The translations under genes were made by a program, and so were the position numbers. Under the pieces are notes generated by a model. That model saw only the letters and a program-made list of their open reading frames with translations. It was not told the DNA's origin and searched no databases. Source: Octopus vulgaris (Eukaryota). Taken from it: 64,000 nucleotides of DNA. Shown here in pieces: positions 9,889 through 64,000 of this stretch. The DNA lies in assembly GCA_951406725.2 (NCBI GenBank), contig OX597819.1:41664001-41728000 (forward strand). The letters are read 5' to 3'. Position 1 is the stretch's first letter, and every line of letters begins with the position of its first letter.

Positions 9889-10099
9889 TATTTCTTTACT
9901 GCCCACAAAGGGCTAAACAAGGACAGACAAAGAAATTAAGTCGATTACATCGACTCCAGTGGGAAACTGGTACTTTATTTATCGACCCCGAAAGGATGAA
10001 AGGCAAAGTCGACCTTGGCGGAATTTGAACTCAGAACGTAACGACAGACGAAATACGGCTATGCATTTCACCCGGCGTGCTAACGTTTCTGCCAGCTCG
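9889..10099 (-). mobile_element. Young SINE family 2 with Tx1-like tail, nested in an older family 2 copy
   Basis: 14-bp TSD CCGGTGTGCCATTG (9875-9888 / 10100-10113). Tail reads TTTAGCCCTTTGTGGGCAGTAAAGAAATA on the minus strand. Confidence 0.8.
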
Positions 10100-10177
10100 C
10101 CGGTGTGCCATTGATTCACCAGAATGACACCTTAACAGGGGAAAATATTAATCATAGAAAATAATGAAATATCTTAC

Positions 10178-20564: not shown

Positions 20565-20691
20565 CTGAAATTCAATGATCAGTGAATCATGTTATTAAGT
20601 GGTGATAACAATTATAGTTTGGTTGAAGTTGGTTTAAATGCTTACTTCTCTTTGATATGTATTAAAATTATCATACTTATTACATTGTCAG

Positions 20692-20729
20692 CCCTCTATG
20701 TTTAGCCCCTGGTGAGCAATAAAGAAATA
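20692..20729 (+). mobile_element. 38-bp 5'-truncated Tx1/SINE2 tail insertion
   Basis: CCCTCTATGTTTAGCCCCTGGTGAGCAATAAAGAAATA flanked by a 10-bp TSD ACATTGTCAG. Confidence 0.75.
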
Positions 20730-21354
20730 ACATTGTCAGTGCCATCTTGACTTTATTTTTATATCCCTGAGTTATTTCCCTTGATCTTTGCAGAAGTGCA
20801 TGCACACACAGACACGCACATACAAACACATACCTATATGTTCTATCACTCTTTTACTCCTTTGTCTCAGTCATTTGACTGCAGCCATGCTGGAGCACCG
20901 CCTTTAGTCGAGCAAATAGACCTCAGGACCAGCATCAGTTGTCAAGCGATACCTCCCTCCCCCTCTCTCTCATATATATATAATACAAAGTAAGTTAGGG
21001 GTTATGGATGTAACCCACTAAGGGATATTATCTATCCAATATACTATTGGAAAAGTACCCAGATTCTTAATACATAAATGTATTTAATTGCAATGCAATT
21101 AACTCATTTATTGTATTAAACAAGGGAAGGTAAAGAAGTATTTTTACCATAAATTTATAATACAAATAAGAAAATGGAGAAACAAATTTAGTTTGTTCAT
21201 CAACTTTCAGATATTAGAATGTTGGATTATTTATTCATTTAACAAAATGAGAACCTTAATAGCATACATATATATCTTATAATTCAATACATATAAGATA
21301 AGAATACAAATTATAAAAATCATAATATAAATTATTGAAATCATTAAAGCACTT

Positions 21355-24044: not shown

Positions 24045-24940
24045 TTAAATTTTGGCACAAGGCCAGTAATTTCGGGGGAAGAGATGTAAGTCGATTACAT
24101 CGACCTCCGTGTTTAACTGAACTCTGAAAGGCAAAGTCGATCCCGGCAGCATTTAAACTCAGAATGTAAAGACAGACGAAAAGCCGTTAAGCATTTTGTC
24201 CGGCGTGTTAACGATCTAATCGACCTCTCCCTTCCCCGAAATTGCTGGCCTTGTGCCAAAACTTGAAAGCTATATTAAGGTGGTGAACTGGTAGAATCGT
24301 TAGCACGTCGAGCAAAAATGCTTAGCGGCATTTCGTCCGTCTTTACGTTCTGAGTTCAAATTCCACTGAGGTCGGCTTTGCCTATTATCCTTTCGGGAGT
24401 CGATAAATTAAGTACCAGTTGAGTACAGGGGTCGATGTAGTCGACTATCCCCTCCCCCAAATTTCAGGCCTTGTACCTATTGTGGAAAGGTTTATTATTA
24501 TTATTACTACTACTACTACTATTATTATTATTATTATAATTGTGAAGGTGGTGAGCCGGCAGAATCGTTAGCATGCCGGGCGAAATACTTAGCGGTATTT
24601 CGTCTGCCGCTACGTTCTGAGTTCGAATTCCGCTGAGGTCAACTTTGCCTTTCATCCTTTCGGGGTCGATTAAATAAGTATCAGTTACGCACTGGGATCG
24701 ATATAATCGACTTAATCCGTTTGTCCTTGTTTATCCCCTCTGTGTGTAGCCCCTTGTGGGCGGTAAAGAAATAGGTATTTCGTCTGCCGCTACGTTCTGA
24801 GTTCAAATTCCGCTGAGGTCGACTTTGCCTTTCATACTTTCGGGGTCGAAAGTACAGCTGAGTACTGGAGTCAATATAATCGACTTATCCCTTCCCCACC
24901 AAATTCCAGGCCTTGTGCCTTCAGTAGTAAGGATTATCAT
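24045..24940. mobile_element. Cluster of SINE family 2 copies, including a nested Tx1-tailed copy
   Basis: Repeated GGCAGAATCGTTAGC...GCCTTTCATCCTTTCGGGGTCGAT core (resembles the MetaSINE-type domain). Tail junction at 24773|24774. Confidence 0.8.
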
Positions 24941-25815
24941 TATTTTTATTTTTATTGTTGTTGTTATTTACGCGCTAATTGGTAGAATGGAGAAATATGA
25001 TGAAGTGGCTAGCATCTGATTCAAAGCAAACTCAAGGGTAACTCTCGTGGATTTCTGACCCCATTTTCTATAAGAGTAGGAGGCAGATTCACATTAATGT
25101 GACGACCAGGGAACCCAAACACGACTTACTCGAGGGGGTTCCTACATAGGGGTGAAGGAGAAGAATGCGTGACATTCATCCTAGTGTCAGTATACTTATC
25201 ACAAACAAAGAAAAAAAAGGAATCTCAGTAATTATTGGGATTTCTTTCTCCTTTTTGGCGAACTGTTAACTTACGGGGACGTAAACAACTCAACGCCGGT
25301 TGTCAAGCGACGGTGGGGAACAAACATACACACACGCGCACACACACACACACACATAAACGACAGACATGTTTCAGATTCCGTCTACCAAATCCACACG
25401 CAAGAATTTGGTCGTCCCGAGGCTATAGTAGAAGACACTTGCCTGAAGTGCCAACGCAGTGGAACTGAACCCAGAACCATGTGGTTGAGAAGCAAACTTC
25501 TTATCACACACCCATGCCTACCCCTGTCTATAAACGAAGTCTTTCTACATTACAAAGAAAAGGATGTGTTATGAAAAAAATAGGAAACAAATGTAGAATA
25601 AAGAATGCTTTATCGGGTCTAGTTACAAAAGTTAGCGTGTGAATAGCTTATAAGGAAATCGTCAGTAAGTTTTTTTTAGCTAGAAGAAAGGTAAAGCTTA
25701 AAAAAAAACGTATGAAATTTACAGCTGAAATTCAAGCTGTTATATTGACTGATTTCCTTCTTTGCGAAGGATGGGTAGTCTGGTAAGTACGTATGTATGT
25801 ACGTATGTATGTATG

Positions 25816-29509: not shown

Positions 29510-31720
29510 ATTACTAATCACAACAATTGTTTCGACACATGTAGCATCGACTCCTCTTGTGAGACACACAAAAACTTGTTCTGGAGTATCCTGTGGTGCG
29601 GACGTATCTCGTTGGGTGATAAATAAATAAAAATAAACTCGTTAATATGACAGTTCCATAATGCAACTTTTCGTTTTGTAGAGAGAAAAACAACCAGACG
29701 GAGGAAAATTCGTCATATATATATATATAGAAGATTCAAAAATAAGATTGCAGAAGATAAAAAGGGAAACGAACACTTAATCCAGCGAGAAAAGTATTGA
29801 AAGTAACCATTAACCGATATGGATGTATAAACGCCCTCGAGCAAGCTGCATGGCACGAGTGCACACGCTCACACAAGCATTAGCAAAACTGTGAGCATAC
29901 GCACACGCGAGGTTAGGCGCACTCACGATTACAAAACGAGTTAGATACTTAGTAGGTGTTTAGAAGAACGGTGAGGTTTAAAGTAAATTTAAGTTATCCA
30001 TACAGGCGCAGGAGTGGCTGTGTGGTAAGTAGCTTGTTTACTAACCACATGGTTCCGGGTTCAGTCCCACTGCGTGGCACCTTGGGCAAGTGTCTTCTAC
30101 TATAGCCTCGGGCCGACTAATGCCTTGTGAGAGGATTTGGTAGACGGAAACTGAAAGAAGCCTGTCGTATATATGTGTATATGCGTGTGTGTGTGTTTGT
30201 GTGTCTGTGTTTGTCCCCCAGCATTGCTTGACAACCGATGCTGGTGTGTTTATGTCCCCGTTACTTAGCGGTTCGGCAAAAGAGACCGATAGAATAAGTA
30301 CTGGGCTTACAAAAGAATAAGTTCCGGGGTCGAGTTGCTCAATTAAAGGCGGTGCTCCAGCATGGCCGCAGTCAAATGACTGAAACAAGTAAAAGAGAAA
30401 AAAATACCTTAAAGTAAGATAAAATAAAATTCACTAAGTTAACTGTTACTCAAAATTCATTCTCACTGCATTGTGCAAAAGTACATTTATATGCTTGTAG
30501 GCATCTCGATATTCTTTCAGAAATTCTATTAAGTATCTTTTCGTTAGTCCACAGAATAGACAGGGATCCCTCGGAGCAGAGACGGCATCTCCTGGAAATT
30601 GCACTGTATGGTTTTGCCTGTCTAACTTATGGACCAAGTAATGTAGTATTTCGCATAAGCCTCTTTCAGTCGCCATATAAAATCTGCCAAAGATGTTGAA
30701 TGTCTCTTATTGATTGACCTAAAGCTGGCAACATGATTACGATAACGATTCTTAAATGAATCCGCCGTCTGCCCAATGTAAACATAGGGCCCTCCCCGTG
30801 TGTGCACGGTACATTTATATACAAGATTTGTACTCATACGGAGATTCATCAAAGGACATTTTGATTTATCTTTGCATGAGCATTTATCGTTTTTATTTGT
30901 ATATAAAGCAGTCCTGACTCCATTCACCGGCATTGTTATCGTGCTAGCTGTACCAAGAGTACTTCTACTACTACAAATTGATCGAAGTTGATAATTATCA
31001 ATGCGATTTACATCTCCTTGGTTAGCATTTAGATGTATATGCCTGCTAGATCCAGTAGGTGGGTTATTGAACCATCGTCGCATTTTTCTATTGTTTATGC
31101 GATGCATAAGCTACTCCAGATTTAGCGTAGGGATACCTTCACGGTGTGCCGATTAAAAATAGCATGGTACCGATTGGATTTAGGAAAACATTTGTCCAAA
31201 GCAGCAAAAAATTTTCCAGCAATCCTTTTTGAAACGTGCAAACCGAAAACTGGGTTGAATCAGAAGACATCCTGATTCCTATATCTGTTGTTAGGTTTAT
31301 TTGATCTAGTGTGTTGTACAAAATTGGAACAAGTAGATGTTGCATGTGTCTATGAGTTTTCTTTGGTAGATCATTGACATGACCAATTCCTTCTAGCCTG
31401 TATTCTTTATCCGAGTGATTTCTCAAACGGTTACGTTGTGATGGCATACGATGTGTATCTTTTTGAAGGAATTACCAGTTTTGCTTAACCCTGAATCTTG
31501 TATATATTGAATTCAATCACGGTACCCATCCTTAGCTAGAGCATCATTATAATAAGATGCATGAGATTCGAAAATTTTACTGGTAGCAGATAATCTAGAA
31601 ATTCTAGTAGAAATATTCTTAACTAGTCCCAGTATAATCAAGGGTGGGTGGTTGAATGTTATGTTAATGTACTTAATATGATCGTTCGGTTTATGAAATG
31701 GTTCAAATAATCCAGAATCA
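29510..31720 (-). mobile_element. Penelope-like element 3' remnant (RT C-terminus, GIY-YIG endonuclease, pLTR), interrupted by a SINE
   Basis: FHKPNDHIKYINITFNHPPLII...ISTRISRLS, then CSCKDKSKCPL...LVYKC...YIGQTADSFKNRYRNH. Frameshifted. Confidence 0.85.
30005..30398 (+). mobile_element. SINE family 1
   Basis: Full-length copy with CpGs intact. Confidence 0.85.
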
Positions 31721-31753
31721 AGACATACATACATACATACATTCATGCATGCA

Positions 31754-31869
<116 letters not shown>

Positions 31870-33053
31870 GAGTGGCTGTGTGTAAGTTTGCTTGCTAACC
31901 GACCACATGGTTCCGGGTTCAGTCCCACTGCCTGTACTCTTGACTCTGAAATGATCTTCGTGGTTAACCGCATCAGGATGACGGTAGGTAATGCTTTTAA
32001 TATCATTTCCTTTTTATATAAATTAGTCTGAAATTGTTGAATACATTTCTTTCAAATTAGGTAATTTCAGGGTTGGTCTGCAATCATTTATAATTAAATG
32101 TTTTCTTTCAAAATATTTTTTTTTCTTTTTTATTAAACTGGACTAGTATTTCGAATGAGCAATAAGTATCAAAGCATTTAACAATGAGCATTAAATATCA
32201 AAGATAAAAATAAATCATTTTGTTCCCTTATCAAACTTTGGGCCTAACAACCTAAATGAGAAAACCGATATGACTGAATAAGAATTTTTAAAGGGCTTTT
32301 ATTGTTAGGCTGAGGTCAAGCAGTCGAATCCATTCAACCATGTCGTCAGTCTTTAGCAACATCAACTACAAAGAACTTGAGAGAGGTGACAGACTGAGAG
32401 AGGACAAGAACCTTCACATATTTTCAGCATTGCAAGATTTTGGAGTTATTTTTGTCAGAATAAAGCTATCTTCAAGAATCCAAGTAATGCTATGTATTGA
32501 AGAGTAGCCGCAGATGCTGGTCATGTTGTTGTTCTTGTTGTTTGCTGCTACTGTTGTTGTCACATACTTTTTATTTTGATGCTACTTTGCTTCAGAAGTT
32601 GGTTAGTCATAAATTCCCTTGGGAATTTTAAGCCCAACTTCATCACTTTTATTTATTTATTTTTGTTTTTTGTTTTTGCTTTGGAACGAAATCTAGTTTC
32701 AAGCATCTTATACAGTTAATTTTTTAGACACTATTTTCTGAAACTGGTAAAATTATGTAGGGGGTGCAAATTTTGATCTTGCACCACCTGAAAATTCCAA
32801 GGGGTGCAGTTGCACCAGCTGCACCCCCTGTTCCCGGGCCCTTGACAGCATTGAAGCATTTGAACAATTAGATGCAGTTGTAATGCCTCGGTTGAAAATA
32901 TTGTGGCTCACGTAGTACACACAAACTCACGCTCACACAGACACGGAAGTACATATATGTGTGTATGTATGTGTATATATGTGTGTGTGTATTTGTGTGT
33001 GTATATATTTATATATATACACATATATATATAAGTAAATATACACACACACA

Positions 33054-34197: not shown

Positions 34198-35254
34198 GCA
34201 TAAATATACATACGTTCACATATATATATATATATTAACATTATCATTTAAATATCGTGCAGCATTTTATGAAATTGATATGCATTTAACCCTTGTCCAA
34301 CAATAAACACGTTTCTCAGCCCATAATCTATCACCCCGTGAGCTTGTATATCCTCCTTCATTATTTGATAAGGGTTGATCTTAGTCGGGTTGACTTAGTC
34401 TAAATATTACTCTGGGAAAATACGTTGTTGAGAAAATAAATAAATAAAAAATCCAGTTATAATACCTTGAAATCGTATAAGCAAATGTAATTTGGTGTGA
34501 ACCAATAGGAACGATTGTGGACTGAAATGAATAACGCCTTCCCGGGTCAAATGGCTATAGATAATTACATAAGGAAATCATAAATAAATTTTTCATAACC
34601 AATGAAAAGAGACCACAAAGTGTGACTTCTAGAGTCGAAATTCGAGAAAGATATTTATACAATTATTTAGGATTGGTAGTATTTGCATAACGAATACTGG
34701 GAAATTTGATAATAAAATGAAAAGAAATTACTTCCTATCAGAAACATCACAGCAATAAAATGATCAGACCTCGAAGAATCGAGTGAACCTATAACTACAC
34801 CCTGCCTTTTTTTTATTTTGAAAAGTCAGCAATGTTTAAGGGAGAGTATATTCTTTCCTATTCTAGGCACAAAGCCCGAAATTTTTGGGGAGGAGGGCAG
34901 TCGTTTAGATCGATCCCAGAACGCAACTGGTGCTTAATTTATCGACCTCGAAAGGATGAAAGGCAAAGTCGATTTGAACTCAGAACGTAACTGCAGACGA
35001 AATACGAATTTCTTTATTGCCCACCGGGGGCCAAACATAGATATGGACAGTACAACTGATGGGATCAGTGAATCGATATGATTTTACATAAATGTGACAT
35101 CAAAATTAAAATACAATACATAAAAATCGAATGGAATACACAGTACAAAAACAATACAAATGGAGCGATGATCAAGTTACGCTCCGATCCCACAAGCCCC
35201 GATCTACCGCTGATACCTTTTTATTTTTCCTTTTTTTTTTTTTTCCTCGTCTAT

Positions 35255-38200
35255 TCACACGGTTCCTTGCACGCACAACACTCGTGCAACATACTTCCAT
35301 CTCTTTTGGAAGGTACACTCTGACAGACACCTCTTCTCCAGCCACAGTTTCCTTTTCAAATGAAAAGAAAAAAGGATCGTAAATTGTCACCAGAGATAAA
35401 GTTGCCTGTCTTAATTCCTTTTATCCTAGTCTTCCATACAGCCTCTTTTGCTATTGCTACAACCGTGAGAAAACAATTCTTACCTTCGTTCGTTAGAACT
35501 CCCGGTGGGTCAATTTTTATAATTGACTCAGTCGACAGCCGTACTCTTCCTTCGCCGGACAACAGATGTTCAGCATAAGCCCACATTTCAGTTATCTCCG
35601 GACACTGAACAATAGCGTGAGGGACGGTTTCCCTGTCCCCTCCGCATCTTGGACAGGTCGGCGACTGACGTTTACCATGTCTTGCGAGCTTATCCCAAAC
35701 GGGCAAGGCACCTCTGTAGCATTGCCAGGTTAAGGACTTTTGGAAGTAGTCCAACGTTCTCAACCCGAATGTACGATGAAACAAGCTGTCCAGTTGAATA
35801 AATCCGAGACCTAGAGTCGACCCCAGGCCATCGTCGCATTCAGACTCTACCAACCCACTATATAAAATCTGTGTGGAACCCCCACCGCTGGCGTTGCCCG
35901 AGCGCCGGAACAGCAAGAGGGCCTTACGGCACTCTTTATGCCACTCACTCGACCTCGGTCTACGAGAACACCAGGCTTCCTGTTCGCAAAAACTCTTGAA
36001 CTCAGGGAACATTTGTCTGGCCAGCGGAGACCACATCCGTTCACTATCCAGGAGAATCCAGAGGTGCCTCAACCTCAACGCATGTCTGCGCATCATTAAC
36101 CAAGGCATCCCTAAACCTCCATTTAAAGGCTTTTGACAGCAGACAGAGCGTTTCACAAGTGGCGACCTGCCCTTCCACAAAAAGCGAAAGAGCTGTCTCT
36201 CCAACCTGATCAACCACGAATCCGGACAGGGCACGACGGTCAGGCGGTAGGTAATGACCGATGCGATAAACACATTGGCCACTTCCGCCCTCCCTTTCAG
36301 GGATAGCCACCGCCAAGACCAGGTCTTGACTACTGCAGCCACCCTGCTCAATACTTCCGTCCAGTTCTTCTCTATCTGGAGGCCTGGTCCAAACCAGACT
36401 CCCAGCAACTTAACCGGTCCCTCCGTCCAGCGCCTAACAACACTGTCTGAAGGCATCGACTTGCCAACCCAGGTGCCGAGCTGCAAGCCGACCGACTTTT
36501 CCCGGTTAATCTTTGCTCCTGCTACCTCCTCGTAAGCCTCAATAGTCTTACCTACTTCACGTAGGCGTGCCACTGTGGTTACACTGATAGTGATATCATC
36601 CGCGAAAGCCGTAACAAACTCCTCTAGTCCTGGTTCTCTCGGGATGCCACTCAACCTTTGCAGTAATGGCTCGAGAGCCATCACATACAAAAGTGGTGAA
36701 AGCGGACATCCTTGACGAACCGAGCGTCTGATACAGAACGGCTTCGAAAGAAAACCGTTCACCCGAACTATCGAGTCAATGTTGTGGTACAAAGCGATAA
36801 ACCACCTGAGGAAGCCAAGGCCCAGGCCAAACCGCGCAAGTACAGTCGCTAGGTATCGATGGTCAACCCTATCAAAAGCTTTAGACTGGTCCAAATGCAC
36901 CAATGCCCCACCTTTGCCAGATTTATTACCAAACCTCTCTATGGTATAGCGAATAAGATGGAGGGTATCCTGAATGGTTCTGCCTGGGATGGCACATGTC
37001 TGTGCCTCCCCGACTATACCATTCGCGACACGCGCCAACCTTTTTGCTAGAACCTTGGCCAAAATCTTCACTTCTGCGTTTAACAGAGTGATGGGCCTGA
37101 AATTCTCTAGAACGTCCCCCTTGTCCGGGTCCTTTCTGACCAACGTCACTACTCCCCGCACAGATCTGGGGATAAACCCATTCTGTTTCCAGTTCGCGTA
37201 CACGTCAGTCAGTAGTTGCCCGAACAAGTCTGGCATACATTTATACAGCTCGTACGGAAGACCATCAAGTCCCGGTGACTTACCCGCTTTACAATCGGCC
37301 AAAGCCTCCATCACCTCCTCAGGTGTGATTGGCCCTTCGCAAGACTCCGCATCCGACCCCGAGAGGCACGGCAGCCCGGTAAGAAAGTCCTCGAGGGCTC
37401 TCCCACCACCAGGACCGCCGTCACCCCCGAACAGCTGGGCGAAGTACTCCCGAAAGACCTCACACATTTTCTCGGGTTCGTTTATCAAGACACCATTTTG
37501 ATTCGTCAAAGACCGAATAGAGGAACTATTTCCTTGCCGAGCTTCCACCACTCGGGCCCATCCAGCGGCTTTGATTCCTTCACTTCCCATTGCACGTAAC
37601 TTAGCTCTGGTAATACTTCCCATGTGGTGGGCTTCAAGATGCTGGTTTAACTCCAGTCTTTTCACCCTCGCTTGGTCTGTATTACCAGTCCTCCAGGCTT
37701 CTTCTAGTTCCTTAACTAGACCATCTATTTTACATCCCTTCTTAGCTAAACTTATGCTAAACCTAATAGACTCATATTTGATGGCTCTTTTTAGGGCGTA
37801 CCACCATTTGTTATTAATGATGGTACCTGTTAATGCCCTCTGTATTAACATCTTGATCCGCTTTCTGTACTCCTCAATCGCCAAAAGGGACGTATTGAGT
37901 TTCCAGTAGCCAGATCCCTGTCTATGCAACTTATCTACCGTCAGTTTACAGGTAACCATCTTGTGGTCACTGTAGCTGACTAGAAAAACTGTGGACACTC
38001 AACTATGGACTTATCTTTTTCTCTAATTAAAATCCTATCTAGATATGTTCTGGTAGACCCGTCACTATTTGACCACGTCCACTGTGGAGTGTTCGGGTGC
38101 TCCAACCTATATGGATCTGCTAGCTGAAATTGACTTAGCAGATCCCGAAAGCCTGGGTTACATTTTCTGTTCATGTTCGAGTTTGAGCCAACACAATCTG

Positions 38201-38648
38201 TGTGTGCTGCACATATTGTATTAGAGTCTCCTAACACTACTAGTGAATGCGACGTGGCTAGGAACTTTCCTAGGCCACGAAAATATTCAGTTTGCGGGCC
38301 AATAATGTTTGGTGCGTAAATAGCGACCAGCCTGATTGTCTTGCCACAACTGAATGTCAAGTCGAGAACGACCAGCCTGCCTTCTGGGTCAGAAAAAACC
38401 AACTTTTTCTCGGCTACCCGGTTTCTTTTTAGTAGGACCAACACCCCACCCCCACCTCCCGCCCGACTCGGAGAAACGCATTTCTCGTAGCCGTTCAGGA
38501 GGGGGAGCAGATCTCTTGGCCCCTTCACCCGGGTTTCCGTTGCAACAATTACATCCAAATTTCTCGACCTGATGTCATTCAGAAAGCGTCCTTGCTTCCA
38601 GCTTGACAACAGGCCATGAACATTTAAACAACCAATGTGAATAGCCAT
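35255..38648 (-). pseudogene. LINE ORF2: APE endonuclease, RT and C-terminal zinc finger, with two frameshifts
   Basis: LNVHGL/ATET/GDSN/YLDRI/SDH (APE); KSPGLDG, FRPITLLN, KAFDRV, RQGCPLSP, FADD (RT); CPRC...H...C. Frame changes at ~37985 and ~35370. Confidence 0.92.
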
Positions 38649-38659
38649 CACTTACCTGT

Positions 38660-40192
38660 TTAATTAGGTTTGTCCGGTGGAGGGGGACCCTCCACCTTTT
38701 TCTGATCCAGGGTCGGAGGTGGACGGTCTTGGGAAATAGATTTGTCAAAATCCCGTCTCACCACCGACACAGAATTATCAGGTGGAGGGGGAATCTCCAC
38801 CTTTTCCTTTTCTCGCGGGATCGGAGCTGGTAATCCATGAAATATCGACTTGTTAAAATCTAATCTCAATGAAGATACAGTCTTTCTGTACTTATTTTGT
38901 AGAATTCTATAAGTCTTATTTGAGACTTCATATATGTCGTAATTGATAAATTCCTCTGAAAGGTTATCAATTTTTTTTACAGTCTTTATGAGTTGAATGT
39001 CTCTCATGAGCTCAGTATCTTTAGTGTATACGGCTATTATGCCTTTTTCTTCTTTTTCTCTTCTGGCAGTCTTTTTTGGTCGTTGTTCTGTAGTAGTCGC
39101 CTCTCTCGGCTGGGTTGCTGGTTGTATTTTTCTTTTGTTTGTTGTTTTTTTCTCATCTGTTTCTTCTTTATCTTCTTCCTCTTTGTCTTTTTTCTCCTCT
39201 TCCTCCTCTTCTTCATTTTCCTTGCAGTTCCTTCTGAATGTGGCCTAATTGACCACATAAAAAACATCGAGGTTTTCGGCCCTCAACAAACACCACGAGG
39301 TTCTCCTCCCCTACCTCAATTGTCTCAGGAATTGTTTGAATTATTTTAGGGTCCGCTTGAATGAGAAGATTAATTGTTTGACCATCCCAGCGTGGGTTTT
39401 CCGTAGCGGTAGCCTGGAGGAGAGTAATTTTTTCTACCTCTTTGATTAGGACTGCCGCCAACAACCACATAGGTTCGACCTCTGGTGGGACCCTTGTAAT
39501 TTTTATTCGCGACGTCCTCATCCCCATATAATAGGGGATTAACTCCACGTCGTTCGTTTTCAACGTTTCAACTGAGTTCTTATGTGCTATTTCTTTATTG
39601 GTGAACCTTACTTACACCGTTCCGAATTTTTTTCCTCTTCTCAGAAATACTACGTCGCCCAATATTGGCTTTAAGCACTTTTCTATTTTCTCTTCTGACA
39701 TTCTTTCAATTTTTCTTTTTTGTAGACAATATGTTTTGAAAATTATTGTTTTTTTGCTTTTCTTCCTGTAATAACTTTTGCGGAGGTTCAATTTTCACAC
39801 CGTTGTCAGTTATTTCCATCATTTTGCTGTATTTCATAATTTCGCTTTTATTCGTCGACAGTATCTGGGTTCCACCCCCAGCAGCCAACGCAAACCTTTT
39901 TTTTTCCATTTTTTGGTTCTATCTGGATGCTAGGCACATCAATTATTCTCTTCGACACAATGCCTTTGTTCTCTGGCAAAGTCGGAAACTCTTCTGGTGA
40001 AAGTTCTGACGAGCTCTCAGACACATCTCCAAAAATATCAAATATATTATCCTCTCTGCTATTCCTTCTTGTAGCGGGAGAAACCCCTATTTCCTTGTCT
40101 GTAGTTAGCTCCTCGCCGGACATGTATTTCCTCCTCTCAACAGGAGAAACAAGTATTTCTGCTCCAACGGTAGGCTCCATGCTAGACGACAT
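38660..40192 (-). pseudogene. LINE ORF1 (Tx1-type, zinc knuckle), disrupted
   Basis: Fragments in several frames with CFLCGQLGH knuckle. Homologous to ORF1 at 59015. Contains an in-frame TAA in GTV*VRF. Confidence 0.8.
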
Positions 40193-40814
40193 TCTTTCCC
40201 CCAAAGGGGGAATGAACAACGCGTGCTACCACAAGCACTAAGTGTTTTCAATTGAAAACTCCAACAGTTAAGTTATTCAACAGTTTAACAAGAAACAATA
40301 GTTGTTAACAATATTAACACCACGAAACAGCAATTCTTACTTCACGAACACATGTGCGACAGACGAAATACGGCTACGCATTTCGTCCGGCGTGCTAACG
40401 TTTCTGCCAGCTCGCCGCCTTTTGAAATGAAGTGTATTGCTCAAGAGCACAATGCATCACCCAGTCAGGGAATCGAACCCAAGATCTACCGATCCTGAGT
40501 GCAACAGCCTAATCACTAGGCCACACGCCTTCACTTGTGGGGAAAATATTGGTTTCAAATTTTGGCATAAGTCGATTAGATTGACCCCAATGTCAAACTG
40601 GTACTTATTTTATCGTTTGTCTATGTCACTTAAGATATACCAGTTATCTTGCCAGCCATGACATTTTATTCTTTTTTTATTCCTTTTAACATCCTGGTTT
40701 AAAATTACAATTTTTTAAAAAGAAAAACACTGATTAAATATAATACAACTAATAAGCTATAGGTTACTCTAATATTCTACAATAATAAAATAAGATAAAG
40801 AAAAAAGTTATTCA

Positions 40815-46000: not shown

Positions 46001-46004
46001 AAAG

Positions 46005-46674
46005 CAGTGGTTCTCAACTAGGGTCCTTATGACCTTTAAGGGTTCACATAAGACTTTGTTGTTAAAATTTATGGCAGAAACGAAGGCGGCGAACTGGCAG
46101 AATCGTTAGCACACCGGGCGAAATGCTTGGCGGTATTTCGTCTGTCTTTACGTTCTGAGTTCAAATTCCGCCGAGGTCGACTTTGCCTTTCATCCTTTCG
46201 GGGTCGATAAATTAAGTACCAGTTACGCACTGCGGTCGATCTAATCGACTTAATCCCTTTGTCATTCCTTGTTTGTCCCCTCTATGTTTAGCTCCTTGTG
46301 GGCAATAAAGAAATAAGAAACGTTAGCACACCGGGCGAAATGCTTGGCGGTATTTTGTCTGTCTTTACGTTCTGAGTTCAAATTCCGCCGAGGTCGACTT
46401 TGCCTTTCATCCTTCCGGGGTCGATAAATTAAGTACCAGTTACGTACTGGGGTCGATCTAATCGATTAGCCCCCTCCCCGAAAATTTTGTGCCTTGTGCC
46501 TAGAGTAGTAAAGAATAACGTGATTATATTTCTACAATACACAAAAGTTTTAAACAATTTTCTCATAAAATTCCATAGAATATATAATAAGGCTTTTTAA
46601 AACACCAGATAACTGTGAGGGTCCATAGGTATCAAAGGGCTCCATAGGTAAAAAAAATGGGTTGAGAACCTCTG
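46005..46674. mobile_element. hAT-Charlie-like MITE containing nested SINE family 2 copies
   Basis: TIR CAGTGGTTCTCAAC / GTTGAGAACCTCTG. TSD CTCTAAAG / CTCTGAAG. Confidence 0.75.
46083..46315 (+). mobile_element. Full-length Tx1-tailed SINE family 2 inserted in the head of another family 2 copy
   Basis: AGAAACG duplicated at 46076-46082 and 46316-46322. Tail TTTAGCTCCTTGTGGGCAATAAAGAAATA. Confidence 0.75.
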
Positions 46675-47639
46675 CTCTGAAGCAATAATTGTTTCATTTA
46701 TTGTATTATTATAATTAGGGCATCGTGAGTTGTGAATAAAATACATGTACGAGTTCCGTGTGTGTGTATATGTGTGTGTTTTCAGGGATTGGGGAGAATC
46801 GTTTGAGGGTCCTATTTTGGGATATGTTTGGGGACCCCTGCACCGCAAGGAAAAAATAAGTAAAAATGTTTTAAGCGACTGGCTGGGAGTGTCCCTTAAT
46901 GTTTCACCTCTGTTTTTTCGTCTTTTTTTTTTTTTTGTTATCTTAGTCGAGAGAGAAAGGTAGTACTTAAGTCCTATACAGTGACACTGAGACTGGTAGG
47001 AAAGAAAGGGGAAAGTATCCTTGTTTCTGAAACCTGATTACCCGCAACAGAGTGAATGCAGCTAAAAAGAAATAAAAGAACGTAAAAGATGTCAGCTGAT
47101 GGTGTTGAACCGGGTGACAGATTAAGTCTACCATCCGAGTAGTTCATGATGAGATCTGAACTCGGAACACAAAAGAAACTGAAATGTAAACACATGAACA
47201 AAATTAGAACAAAAGCAACAACAACAAAAACAAAATACAAATTACAAGAACGTATATAAACAGAAGATACAAATATTACAGGCATCCCCCCCACACACAC
47301 ACTAAATAAACATAGACGCACATAGAGATATAAGCATGCGCAAATGAAGACATACAATAGAAATACAAAATGGCTGACGGTTAGTAAGGAGAGACACAAA
47401 TAAGTGAGAAGAAAACAAAGGACCACTGATGCGGTCACAGGAGTGTGACGAAAGAACTTTGGCCGAAATAAGATTAAGATTAATGTAAAAAATAAATATC
47501 ACTGAAGCAAAATAACACCAAATATATAGTGCGTGTGTTTTTATTGGCTAAACTGGCAATATGACCATTCCGAAATATAACAATATCTGTTTCAACACAC
47601 GACTTCACATAAAAAATCTTGCACAACAAATATTTAAAC

Positions 47640-57994: not shown

Positions 57995-58465
57995 ATGGAA
58001 CTGATCGCATGATTTAACACTAACAAGGGAAGAGGCAGAACAAGGTTCACCCAGTTTGGTATAGCCGACTTTTAACCATCTATATGAAAAGGGCTACTGG
58101 CCAAGGAGCTTTCTTTCGCGAGGGGCTTAACTAACATTAGCGACAGAAATATAGAAGTCATTGTGCATGCCAGAAAGGCAATGGTATTCAACATAGGATA
58201 GGTATGGGTCACGCAATCCGACCCCATGGGCTCCTTTTACGTAGCGATGGGAACCTTCGATAATGCTGACGTATGCGACCTCATTGGGTTGTACATCCTC
58301 GATACCTTTAGGAAAAAGTTCCCCTCTGTCCTATTTGGCCTCTACAGAAATGTCTCCTTGACCATCTGTAGCGAGGCAAACGGGCATACACTAGACAGGC
58401 TTAGAAAAAATCTAATAAGCACGCTTGCCTCCATGGGATTGAAAATCACCATAGAGACCAATTTT
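57995..58465 (+). mobile_element. Penelope-like RT fragment
   Basis: FGIADF*PS...FYVAMGTFDNADVCDLIGLYIL...GLYRNVSL...GLKITIETN corresponds to a decayed PLE RT MGS.DGAE...GLYRDDGL region. Confidence 0.75.
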
Positions 58466-58469
58466 TTCT

Positions 58470-61400
58470 ATTGAAATTGTTGTCTATTGTTGAATATTTT
58501 CGAAAATTTTTGTGCTTTTTCCCGGTGACGGGAGAATGTAATTGTTGAAATATTGAACTTATTAATATTATTAATATTGAACTTATTAAAGCCGTTATAG
58601 GCTTTATTGCCCCCCCCCCCCAGCTGGGGTGGCATTTGAACTATTATTCTCATTAAGAGGAAAAAAATATTATAGGTTTCCCGTTTTTTGGCATAAGCAA
58701 TTTATTATTGCTAGAAAATTTTAATTTTAGCCGTTGTAGGCTCTATTGTGCAATCCGCCACTAGCGTGGGCGAGATTTGGACTATTGTCCTCGTTGTGAG
58801 GGGAAAAAAAATATTATAGGTTTCCCGTTTTTTGGGGGATTCTATATTTTATTATTGTGTGAAAAAAAAAATAATTTCGAACGTTGCAGGCTTTATTGCT
58901 ACGTCTCCCCACCACCACCAACAGTTGTCCTCGGTAAGAGGGACAAAAAAAGTAAAAACTTATAGGTTTCCCTTTTTCTGGGATTAAATTGTATTTCATT
59001 TATTTCGAACGAATATGTCGGTCGAAATAATCCAAGAAAAGAACCAGCTGCATGAGCCAGCAAAAAAGTTCGCGGCAGTAGCCGCTGTGTCTTCAAAAAT
59101 TATTATAATTGAAACGGAGAAGCTCTCCGAGCATTTTGAGAGAATGAAAGAGGGTGGGGATATAAAGATCTCACCCTCCCCTAGTGCTGAAATTTTGAAG
59201 AGAAGGAAACTCGTTTACAAAACCTACTGTCCTTCATCGAAGAAATTCAAGCACTTCGAAAAGTGCGAAATAGAAAAATGCCTGGCCCCTATATGGAAAG
59301 ATATAAAATACATAGCGAAGGGCCGGGCATATGGAACAATAGAGGCCAGATTCGAGACGGACGAAAAAGCCCAAGAGCACTCAGTGAGTCCTCTAAAAAC
59401 GAAGGAGGTGGTGCTGCTCCCAACATACATGGGAAAGAGAACAGCACGCGTCCGAATAAACGACGTACCACCAGAAACTGAGACAAGGGAGGTGATGGTC
59501 GCCCTGTTGTATAACAAGACGGACAAAATCACCTTCCTCCAAATTACATGCACTGCCCCACAAAATTGGCAAGGGCAGAGCATCTCTGCGATTATTCAAG
59601 GAACGCAACAAGACATTGAAATGTTGCCAGAAAGAGTGCTCTTGGGGGAAGATATTGCCCTCAATATTCAAGTAAAGGGCAAAAAGCCCACGTGTTTCGG
59701 ATGTGGCAAAAAAGGCCACATTCGTGTAGACTGTGAAATATAGAAAAAAAGAAACTAAGTGCGTAGACATCAGGCCCTTCAACTACAGAAAATTACCCCA
59801 AACCCGCACACAAATTAGCCCCCTCAGAAACAAATACTCCCACCCCACCATCTGTGGCACCCGCTCCCAAACAAAACACTCCAAAACCCCAGGCCATGCA
59901 CACGCCGGTCCCGACAGAAACAAATGCACCCACCCCTCTGAAGTAACAACTCCTCTGGAAGACACCATGGAGGTGACCGAGGGGAAGTTCAAGACGCCCA
60001 GAAAAAAGAGAATACATGTACCTTCCCCACCCATATCCCCCACAAAGAAAAAAGAAGAAAAACAGCACACCACAGAGAAAAAAAGGATCCCGCTCCACTG
60101 TCCCAAAAGAGAAAATAAAAAAACAAAAACGGAACAAAAACCCTGTTAAAGTTTGATACCAGGGATAAATATATTATGGATATTTTAAAAGAGCACCACA
60201 CCGTGGAGCTGTTGCAGCAGCCCGAAGACACGGAAGAGAGATGTGCTTGGATATCAGAAAAACTGCATAATGAAACGAAGGGTAGGCATCCGAGGACCAT
60301 CACGAACATCCCGGACCTTCCGCGGTATTTGATGGTGTTTTTGAAGGAGCAGGAGGAAAGGACTGCCTCACGTGTGGTGAGGTCAGCCCCAGCATCACCA
60401 ATAAAAGAAAAAAGTGAAAGAGTAAGTAGAACCCTTGCTTTTCTTTTGTTATAAATGACTGCACTTAACCTTGGGTGTTTGAATGTGCGTGGTCTGAGCT
60501 CGAAGTGGAAGCAAGCTTGTTTCTTCGACGACCTCAGATCACATGATATGCATGTGATGGTTGCTACAGAGACCAAGCTGGACAGTCTACAAGCCTTCTC
60601 GCCCCTCCGAATGACTATGAGAAAATCATGTCTCCTAGCCGGACCGGAGGGCGAGGGGGTGTAGTAGTACTGGTTCGAAAAGGCTTGGCTCTGCAGACAA
60701 GTACAGTCTATGTAGACCCAGCAGGTGGGCTGGTCGTCCTTGATGTGACATACAGCAGTAAGGACTTCAGGTTGATCGGGATCTATGCACCTTGTGCTAG
60801 AGGATTGATTTCAAACTGATTTTTATCGGCGCCTAGAGAACTTTCTCGTGACGTCGAAGATATTAATGGTGTTAGGTGACTATAACGCTATGTTATAGTG
60901 ACTATAACGTGCATCGATGGTGTTGGCTCGATCTATAGAAAAGTAAACTCACGTCTCGTGGATCTACTCAAGCGGTTTCAGCTGGCAGATCGTTACAGAC
61001 TTGACCATCCGAACGTCCCAGGGTGGACCTGGATGAGTGGCGACGGAAGGTTCAAGTCCTATTTAGATAGGATAGTGATAAGAACTGGAGATAAGTTTAG
61101 TTTTAGCTGTCCACGGCTTGTCCAAGTAGCATACACTGACCATAGAATGGTTAAGTGTAGACTGGACATAGATAGTACAGTTAAGAGAGGATCCGGCTAC
61201 TGGAACTGAACAAGTCTATTTTGACTTGCGAGGCATACCGTAGCAGGATTGAGGAATTAGTACAGAGGGCGTTAACCGGCGCGGTGGTTAATAACCGATG
61301 GTGGTTCGCCCTGAAGAGAGCCATTCGTTTTGAGTCTATTAGGTTTAGCCGTCAGCTAAGACTAGATAAGGCCAGAATAGAAGGGCAACTAGTTAAGGAC

Positions 61401-63785
61401 CTAGAGGAGGCGTTGAGGTTGGGCTCTGCATCTCACATTTTGGCAGCGAGAACGGCCTTTGACCGTCTCCTCAAAGCCAAACATGAGGGGTGCAGAGTTC
61501 GGGATAAAGTGCGCGCATTGGGCCGTGAGAGAATTAATGTTGCCGGACAGGCCCTTACGGTAGAAACCCAGCGTGGCAATGATGCCAATTAGCAGCAGAA
61601 TGGGAGAATTCCTAAGTCTGCGAGCCGGGAATGGTGACGTTGATCAGGAAGGACCCGAGCAAGGGGGACGAGATAGGGAACTTCAGGCCCATAACTCTGT
61701 TGAACACAGAGTTAAAGATTTTGGCCAAGGTGCTAGTGAAAAGGTTGGCGCGGGTCGTGGACAAACTTGTCGGGGAAGCGCAAACGTGCGCTATCCCGGG
61801 CGGGACGATACACGAAAATCTCCACTTTATACGCTACTCCTTAGAGAGGATGGGGAAGCTTTCTGGCGCAGGGAAGGGGGCACTGGTACATTTAGACCAG
61901 ACTAAGTCATTCGATAGGGTCGACCATCGGTACTTGGCAGCGGTCCTCGAAAAGGCTGGCCTGGGCCCGACTTTCCACGGTTGAATTGTTGCATTGTACA
62001 GTGACATCGAGCCCGTCGTAAAAGTGAACGGTTTCCTTTCGAAGCCATTCAGGATCGAGCGCTCAGTGCGTCAGGGGTGTCCCATGTCCCTTCTTTTGTA
62101 TGTACTGGCTCACGAGCCATTATTGCGGAAGTTGGAGGCACTAGGGGGCGCTCCGCATGATCTATGGTGTGGAAGAGGAGCTACGGCGTATTCGGATGAC
62201 ATCTCCATTATCGTGGCGGATGAGGGCCAGCTTCCAGTGGTGGAAGAGGCTATCAAAAGTTATGAGGCGGTGGCAGGAGCAAAGGTTAACAAGGACAAGT
62301 CAATTGGTTTGCAGCTCGGCACCTGGAGGGGCAAGCCGATGCCGTCCAATAACGTCGTGGGGCGTTGGACGGAAGGTCCTGTTAAGCTGCTCGGAGTCTG
62401 GTTCGGGCCAGACCTCCAGATAGAGAAAAATTGGAGTGAGGTGGCCAGCAAGGTGACTGCTCTAACCCAGACTTGGTCTGGGCGGGCGTTATCTTTGCTA
62501 GGAAAGGCGGAGGTGGTGCAGATGTTTATAGCATCGGTTATCACCTACCGTCTGACTGTGGTGCCTTGCCCCGATTTGTGGCTGAACAAGTTGGAGAGAA
62601 TCCTTTTCCACTTTTTGTGGAAGGGAGGAAAGCCACTCGTGAAGCGCTCTGTCTCCTGCCAGAAACCGCTAAAGGATGGGCTAGGGGTGCCTTGGCTGAG
62701 GATGCGAAAATTCGCGTTAAGGGCACCTCTGGCTTTACCTGGATGGAGAGCAGGTGTGGTCACAACACGTTCGGTTCTACCTTCCGCAATCAATGTCCTT
62801 AACGGATATTGGTAACTGGATCAAGCAGAGACCTAGGCTGGGGGACTGACAATTGGAGTGCCGCCAGGCACTTCAGCTACTCTCTCGGGCGGGCAATGCC
62901 GGCAATAGGAGTTCCACCGCGGATTTCTATAGTGGGTTAGTGGAGGTTAAGTCCGAAGACGCCTTGGGGGAGACCCTGGGCTACGATGAAAATCAACCTG
63001 TTCCGGAGAACTTTCGGGCCGGGGTATCTGGACAATTACCAGAAATCCCTGGCTTGGCAGTGTTTCCGTGCGGCGTTACCTGTTCGTGATAAACTGTCAA
63101 GGCACGGAAGTGCCGTCTCGCCGACATGTCCGAGGTGCGGGCAGGACAAGGAAACCGTCTTGCACGCATTTGTGGAGTGTCCGGAATTAACGGGACTGAT
63201 AGTTTTCGCAGAGCAACTGTTGTCATCGATGGGAAGAGTACAGCTATCAGCTGAATCTATCATCGAGATTGTGCCGCCTCCTGCCCTTAACAGGGAAAAG
63301 AAGGCTTGTTTTTTCTGCGTAATAGCCATACTGAAAGAAACAGTATGGAAAACGCGTGTGAGAGGCATATTGTCGGGTACCTTTGTATCCGGCCAGGGGC
63401 GGGTTAACTTTTTTAGTTACTACCTCAGTAATAAGATCAGGCTGGAGAGAAAAGGTACCTGTCACGAGACAGATTCATGAGAAGATTGAAGCCTGTGGCG
63501 AGGAAGCTGGGAGTGTTTGGCACCAGGTAATTGAAAGCCCAAACCAGGAAAGAAAAAGCAAGGGGTCTACCCTGGTGGTCGGATGCTTATCCTTCAGAGA
63601 AGCCATTACAAATTTCATTTGTAATGAGCAACGCTTAAGTCAAAAGTTATAAACATGTTTATTAAATCATTGTATAATTTAAATTGTAAATATTTAATCG
63701 CTACGGCTACTTCACCCTTTTATGTTTGTCTATTCTTGTTCGTCCCCTCTTTGTAATGCCTTCATGGCAAATACTTATGAAATAA
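58470..63785 (+). mobile_element. Second, diverged and degenerate Tx1/L1-clade LINE
   Basis: ORF1 from 59015 with CFGCGKKGHIRVDC. ORF2 from 60455 (APE, RT with YSDD, CPRC..H...C) has many frameshifts and an internal deletion near 61595. The 3' end abuts a SINE family 1 head. Confidence 0.92.
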
Positions 63786-64000
63786 AGTAGCTTGCTTACC
63801 AACCACTTGGTTCCGGGTTCAGTCTCACTGCGTGGCAACTTGGGCAAATGTCTTCTACTATAGCCTCGGGCCGACCAAAGCCTTGCGAGTGGATCTGGTA
63901 GACGGAAACTGAAAGAAGCCCGTATGTATATGTATGTGTTTGTCTGTCTGTGTTTGTCCCACCAACATCGCTTGACAACTGATGGTGGTGTGTTTACGTC
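63786..64000 (+). mobile_element. SINE family 1 lacking its first ~24 nt
   Basis: Starts AGTAGCTTGCTTACCAACCAC directly after the LINE tail. Confidence 0.85.

Follow-up and report, generated by a model that had tools for sequence, protein, structure and literature searches.

Insertion of an octopus SINE at a fixed position within copies of its own family

Known systems with fixed insertion sites

The closest known system appears to be that of the crocodilian Tx1-Mar LINEs and SINEU, for which insertion sites fixed inside another repeat, the DNA transposon Mariner-N4_AMi, are described (Kojima, 2015; PMC4494074). According to this study, tandems of SINEU arise by sequential insertion and were initially mistaken for a subfamily, and some Tx1-Mar LINEs have SINE-like 5′ ends. 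The repeats analyzed here were found in a stretch of 64,000 nucleotides of the Octopus vulgaris genome (contig OX597819.1, positions 41,664,001 to 41,728,000 of the forward strand; hereafter the window). In both systems, fixed sites in a repeat are used by a Tx1-type LINE as well as by SINEs regarded as its passengers. In the octopus, however, the target is the head of the SINE itself, which makes the donor homologous to the target and would leave no recognizable 5′ junction, whereas tandems of SINEU sandwich a visible duplication. The octopus system is thus a variant of Tx1-type repeat targeting with homologous donor and target.

For R2, the literature describes RNA carrying upstream 28S sequence, a heteroduplex of cDNA and target and, as a result, uniform 5′ junctions; in a minority of cases (about 5% in one species) a tandem duplication is formed instead, and altered target-like 5′ bases are propagated with the element (PMC3774820). 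R2 differs in its restriction-like endonuclease, its rDNA target and its ribozyme, while insertion in the octopus is into a dispersed and mobile repeat that is at the same time the passenger. Melanogaster-type R1 elements, which are APE-type, are described in PMC2718515 as forming either precise, duplication-free junctions via upstream-target annealing or, with downstream cleavage, a duplication of ~14 bp, and tandem R1 arrays arise by repeated insertion. The two outcomes and the arrays formed by repeated insertion resemble those proposed here, but R1 is autonomous, resides in rDNA and involves no SINE self-insertion. For SART1Bm and R1Bm, target-like bases at the 3′ end of the RNA were proposed to determine where reverse transcription starts (PMC7265360); this annealing of RNA and target is experimental there, whereas here only base covariation suggests it. 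No report of a SINE targeting its own head was found in the literature covered (subscription journals, repeat-database reports and supplements lay outside it), and such nesting is not described in the available parts of PMC13282606 and PMC4758252.

The SINE, the LINE and their common insertion site

Short, non-coding, high-copy and flanked by target duplications, the repeat is a SINE. It occurs in two variants with a common head and body, T with a LINE-like tail ending in AAAGAAATA and H with a different tail and the subtypes H1 and H2; all SINE positions refer to the T consensus of 232 nt. For the T tail motif at least 107,409 exact genome matches were counted, a lower bound since the search pattern fixed one further letter. 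In unique DNA, T copies are flanked by target duplications of 12-18 bp, which start immediately behind the tail and show a preference for GGTA(T/C)T and related sequences. Accordingly, the target preference can be regarded as genuine though relaxed, and position 49 fits it best. A wholly RNA-derived origin of the GGTA after the tail was considered and rejected, since it is present in both duplication copies in six of seven selected and in most other cases. Of 34 duplications at unique sites, 4 begin with G in the 3′ copy but not in the 5′ copy, and none shows the opposite pattern.

Motifs at about 12-22 and 74-84 of the SINE, compared by eye with the consensus, resemble the Pol III boxes A and B, and an Rfam search returned neither a tRNA nor a ribozyme match. 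The target site is located at the loop of a predicted 12-bp, GU-containing RNA hairpin, and the tail end GAAATA is, by inspection, the reverse complement of positions 51-56. The last ~35 nt of the T tail resemble the LINE of the window at 35007..40359, and an upstream stretch resembles the second LINE of the window. The exact T tail was found on no LINE in 30 examined loci of 97 matches; these candidate partner-LINE loci turned out to be deleted, truncated or duplicated SINE tails.

In the window, a SINE dimer is located at 24546..24945 on the plus strand, and its SINE-SINE junction at 24773|24774 reads ...GTAAAGAAATA|GGTATTTCGTCTG (window 24760-24786). The head (24546..24593) covers consensus positions 1-48 with 6 non-consensus bases in 48, including 20T. 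It is followed by the inserted unit of the T variant (24594..24773), consisting of the SINE body 49-170 and the LINE-like tail; the T-specific 3′ tail (24714..24773) resembles the 3′ ends of both LINEs in the window without matching them exactly. Head, body and tail of this first unit (24546-24773) are uninterrupted, in agreement with the first-pass annotation, which had reported a dimer without separate 5′ junction. The downstream unit (24774..24945, plus strand) resumes at position 49, as called from the T consensus, and represents the rest of the host SINE; its body markers and its tail are of the H2 type, and TTA/TTG repeats continue from it to about 24969. An unoccupied, older H2-type monomer with a mutated target site lies just upstream of the dimer (24277..24500, plus strand). 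The window contains 7 copies of the 12-mer GTATTTCGTCTG, where 0.23 would be expected, and one exact junction form has 1,719 occurrences in the 2.8-Gb genome against 0 for a reversed control.

The dimer of the window is a genuine position-49 junction, yet it is atypical. Over positions 50-125, only 3 of 75 sites distinguish its two halves (96% alike), whereas the median among 66 dimers is 12%, which places it among the lowest four. Its head is host-like, 20T being the H2 state, and may be partly host-derived in this copy. Given the unusually similar halves and the host-like head, a later conversion of this copy is likely; local conversion or duplication may have been involved.

A full-length L1/Tx1-type LINE with broken reading frames (35007..40359, minus strand) is inserted at the same position. 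Its 5′ side is flanked by the host SINE head 1-61 of the 44G/49C variant (40360..40420, minus strand) and its 3′ side by the H1-type host remainder from position 49 (34850..35006, minus strand); the 3′ end reads ...AATAAAGAAATT|CGTATTTCGTCTG at the junction 35007|35006. Both junctions thus fall on consensus position 49 in the same orientation, as the first-pass annotation had stated; an additional observation is that the two differ in base 49 itself, with G next to the SINE tail and C next to the LINE. With Pfam matches of its ORF2 to Exo_endo_phos, RVT_1 and zf-RVT, i.e., an AP-type endonuclease, a reverse transcriptase and a C-terminal zinc-binding region, the LINE belongs to the L1/Tx1 group of non-LTR retrotransposons. 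The closest solved structure to its protein is human L1 ORF2p (E 1e-50; R2 1e-14 to 1e-20), and a homologue search returned unnamed proteins and Argonauta hypothetical proteins only. The label Tx1 is taken over from the first-pass annotation and is provisional. In PMC4494074, target specificity is assigned where one sequence accounts for over 20% of the flanks; here, all of the 30 LINE 3′ ends fetched and 78 of 85 LINE-type ends from an independent pattern search are located at position 49, the latter counted by eye among 100 of 101 matches listed, with 15 SINE-type rows set aside.

The LINE ends are 0.55-0.68% diverged, compared to 3-4% for the SINE flanks, which are mixed and whose markers do not follow the LINE variants (p 0.08-0.96). 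Conversion of host heads to 44G/49C by the LINE was considered and is unneeded, since the LINE flanks match ordinary 44G/49C hosts in divergence. At the 5′ end, which starts with YCGCACATG, the junction hardly varies between the full-length copies; these make up the large majority of 39 regions retrieved. The first bases of the LINE are similar to positions 62-65, yet in 17 of 30 cases they do not match the 3′ copy, and position 62 follows LINE-internal variants (p=0.013), which indicates that the YCGC travels with the LINE RNA, as in earwig R2. Most of the LINE copies retrieved by a 3′-end query are full length (5.35 kb; L161-L199), which is unusual for LINEs and possibly tied to the mechanism of 5′ joining. 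Nearly identical LINE body sequence was also present in public runs labelled as three other organisms, so the family appears to be shared with close relatives.

A second L1/Tx1-type LINE, whose reverse transcriptase is 65% identical to that of the first, was observed at about 58500-63787 (plus strand). It ends in a related tail and is joined, at about 63788, to another abundant SINE, an arrangement suggestive of a sister system in which a different SINE serves as target. The stretches 30622-32013 (minus strand) and 58000-58470, with GIY-YIG-like and RT-like parts, resemble fragments of a Penelope-type element; a profile search of 30622-31110 gave no Pfam match.

The first-pass annotation had suggested a histogram of tail junctions along the SINE, which was compiled from the DNA around most of the 100 tail matches listed, reaching to about 2.7 Mb on contig C1 and including few of the last dozen. 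Among 124 tails, 55 join position 49, 3 position 16, 3 other SINE positions and 63 non-SINE DNA, so that 55 of the 61 SINE-joined tails fall on position 49, a sharp peak common to LINE and SINE. The exact junction AAAGAAATA is present in 71 of 77 position-49 cases. Site use varies with the tail subfamily: 55 of 101 TAG tails join position 49 and 1 position 16, whereas of 43 CAA tails 5 join each site. For one exact host type, 2,700 occupied and 2,413 empty sites were counted, with arrays entering more than once. Self-targeting at position 49 is therefore real and genome-wide.

Other sites are used as well. In the window, a second dimer (46084..46516, plus strand) shows a T unit joined to its host at the minor site, position 16 (junction 46316), and this dimer sits inside an element with terminal inverted repeats (46003-46680) that resembles a DNA-transposon MITE. 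Another T unit (9889..10101, minus strand, junction 9888) is located at position 21 of an old host and has a visible 5′ junction and a 12-bp target duplication, and a 5′-truncated T tail in unique DNA (20692..20729, plus strand) is flanked by a 10-bp target duplication (20682-20691 and 20730-20739). Recurrent antisense T insertions at about position 136 (L149, L231, L235 and others), where the opposite strand reads GGTACTT, suggest a second site fitting the same motif. At L011 (G000:C1:4512681), a T tail and positions 49-63 are followed by a different tRNA-like SINE, so a third element may use the position-49 site. Furthermore, head-only tandem repeats with a 64-65-bp period and up to 8 junctions occur at visible 5′ junctions (G000:C10:17996025-17996501; L065/L066, L078).

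Origin of the dimers and fate of the host head

The first-pass annotation had named, as the main alternative, that the dimers are one fixed composite subfamily with outer target-site duplications of its own. The invariant junction and the outer duplications flanking many dimers fit this, but the latter are equally expected from the host's own insertion. The downstream halves comprise H1, H2 and several T types, a subfamily mixture that refutes a single composite, and H-type downstream halves are never closer than 7.9% among 40. Downstream halves are more diverged than upstream halves in two sets (8.0 vs 4.8%, n=33, 24:7, p=1e-4; 5.3 vs 4.1%, n=46, 26:13, p=0.009). Congruence between the halves is absent (Mantel r 0.037, -0.02 and -0.022), and within-element controls are congruent (r 0.12 and 0.042, p<=0.002). 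The co-inherited halves with common diagnostic mutations that characterize an Alu-like dimeric subfamily were thus not found. At least 4 rare variants are common to 5 of 2,346 pairs of downstream halves (69 H1 halves), compared to 0 of 1,431 monomer pairs; these 5 pairs involve H1/H2 intermediates and look like subfamily intermediates. The genome also contains full-length T copies at position 49 that show both of their junctions (89 pattern matches), including copies with a duplication at the same site, e.g., L022 and L063. The downstream halves being mixed, older and incongruent, a fixed composite is extremely improbable, and the dimers are well supported as independent insertions.

Local tandem duplication or gene conversion at the DNA level might also produce 184-bp repeats. 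Private mutations common to neighbours were found in a few arrays (L017, L018, L257), 4 of 63 T-T pairs share at least 3 of them, and the halves of the window copy are unusually alike. Most neighbours, however, share none (42 of 63 T-T and 29 of 40 T-H pairs), and T-H dimers, LINE insertions at the same base and target duplications are unobtainable in this way. While a minority of arrays are local duplications, the process is very unlikely as the general source.

For the 5′ side, 238 position-49 junctions were parsed, excluding loci picked for visible junctions or LINEs: in 160 of them the head is uninterrupted, 43 have another tail in its place, 25 lack a head, 7 show a head with a deletion, and in 3 the 5′ junction can be seen. 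Of 170 headed junctions, 3 thus have a separate 5′ junction that is visible. When matched for an intact target, head divergence is 6.0% in 38 dimers and 9.9% in 33 empty H1 hosts (p=4e-4), and the dimers are like 112 T monomers (5.9%; p=0.41). The T-type 44G is present in 11 of 36 dimer heads vs 2 of 33 hosts, and host-type bases occur in the first units of dimers at position 62 in 4 of 37 and at position 64 in 2 of 37 cases. As the heads of dimers are unlike those of matched hosts, the host head is not simply kept. Head divergence follows the newcomer only (rho 0.31 vs 0.09), and head-to-body linkage is lower in dimers (r 0.02) than in monomers (0.06-0.11). A weak link of head positions 25-49 to the host half is retained (r 0.03, p=0.014), and H2-host dimers carry a weak host signal (9.2% vs 16.1%, n=14). 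Position 20, considered as a host marker, proved misleading for H1 hosts. The mismatch of outer duplications amounts to 9.1% in dimers, 9.9% in hosts and 6.6% in T monomers, a trend only (p=0.10-0.15), and to 7.7% in the full, unmatched H1 set, nearer to T monomers; outer-duplication age is uncorrelated with the age of either half. In Logan contigs of public runs, which break inside the SINE, no empty allele was observed.

Joining of the 5′ end by homology, as proposed in the first-pass annotation, remains the best explanation for a hidden junction that is the rule, with the modification that the host head is mostly replaced rather than retained; from the sequence comparisons, homology joining likely replaces most of it with the head of the newcomer. 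In the mechanism that we consider likely, target-primed reverse transcription (TPRT) attaches a T copy at position 49 of an older member of the same family, and the cDNA pairs with and replaces the homologous host head. The observations that it draws on are the position-49 peak, the precise 3′ junction, the 12-18-bp duplications that start there both in unique DNA and in the few copies with a visible 5′ junction, the independent older hosts and the newcomer-type heads. An endonuclease of the L1/Tx1 lineage would nick the bottom strand at 48|49, reverse transcription would begin exactly at the tail end, and the second strand would be primed inside the head through annealing of cDNA and host. 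Where annealing fails, the top strand would be cut about 13-17 nt downstream, leaving a visible duplication. The SINE RNA necessarily contains the head, and the junction statistics fit homology 5′ joining of the R2/R1 type. Each insertion would regenerate two targets, so that arrays with a 184-bp period could grow by repeated insertion, a minority of them probably arising by local duplication.

A T copy in a host might alternatively be transcribed through the host remainder and the longer RNA re-inserted as a ready dimer, giving composites from many sources. Newcomer-type bases in the head and at positions 62-65 of the first unit (C in 48 of 56 dimers whose host has T at 62) and the 7.7% outer-duplication mismatch of all H1 dimers, against 6.6% in T monomers, agree with this, and a head age that follows the first unit is predicted by re-insertion of such composites as well. 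However, visible-junction source loci are rare (3/170; the 89 exact matches), so composites predict common sisters in the 2,346 pairs, of which only the 5 marginal ones were found. Inspection of the 25 head-less cases revealed no truncated dimer with a duplication of its own, and the weaker head-to-body linkage in dimers also stands against re-insertion, which we regard as improbable but as the main competing explanation.

Base 49, LINE lineages and implications

The first-pass annotation had further concluded that one endonuclease made both insertions. The position is indeed common, but the base is opposite: the LINE family of the window joins C at position 49 in 31 of 32 cases, with 44G/49C heads in 33 of 34, whereas the T SINE joins G in 72 of 77 and C in 3 of 77, compared to C in 24 of 153 intact heads (p=0.009). 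A sister LINE lineage, 88-93% identical and with its sequence seen at one locus (L218), joins G; G-type ends make up 28 of the 85 LINE-type ends listed, of which several coincide with hits of a further search and the others are candidate LINE ends. The same position, a similar tail and a similar duplication length speak for the window's family as the single source of the endonuclease. The opposite base, the existence of the G-joining lineage and the divergence of that family, which at 0.6% is far younger than most T copies (about 4%), make this unlikely; the nicking enzyme would more probably come from the G-junction sister lineage. Either sister enzymes differ in preference or the read-through end of each RNA picks base 49, and the single-enzyme reading stays possible if the RNA, not the enzyme, sets this base.

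The second option leads to a tentative view of a self-guiding SINE, in which copies residing in their own family would be transcribed beyond the tail into target sequence, the read-through end of the RNA would pair with the nicked strand, the landing site would be inherited via the RNA and old heads would be overwritten by young ones. Lineages would then have their own sites, with G49 in the main SINE, C49 in the young LINE and a more frequent use of position 16 in the CAA-tail subfamily. It is consistent with the covariation of base 49 with lineage, the dependence of site use on tail subfamily and the 3′-side-only G in 4 of 34 duplications, although sister enzymes with different preferences also explain most of this. 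If true, tens of thousands of loci would have their Pol III promoters renewed by self-insertion.

The usual relation of LINE and SINE is reversed in this system, as the passenger provides landing pads for itself and its carrier. Extrapolated from 44% of the 107,409 tails, tens of thousands of natural events are available, and this set bears on 5′-end joining and second-strand priming of non-LTR elements with an L1-like enzyme and homology of donor and target. Repeat annotation would label the dimers a subfamily, and SINE ages based on the head would be biased young.
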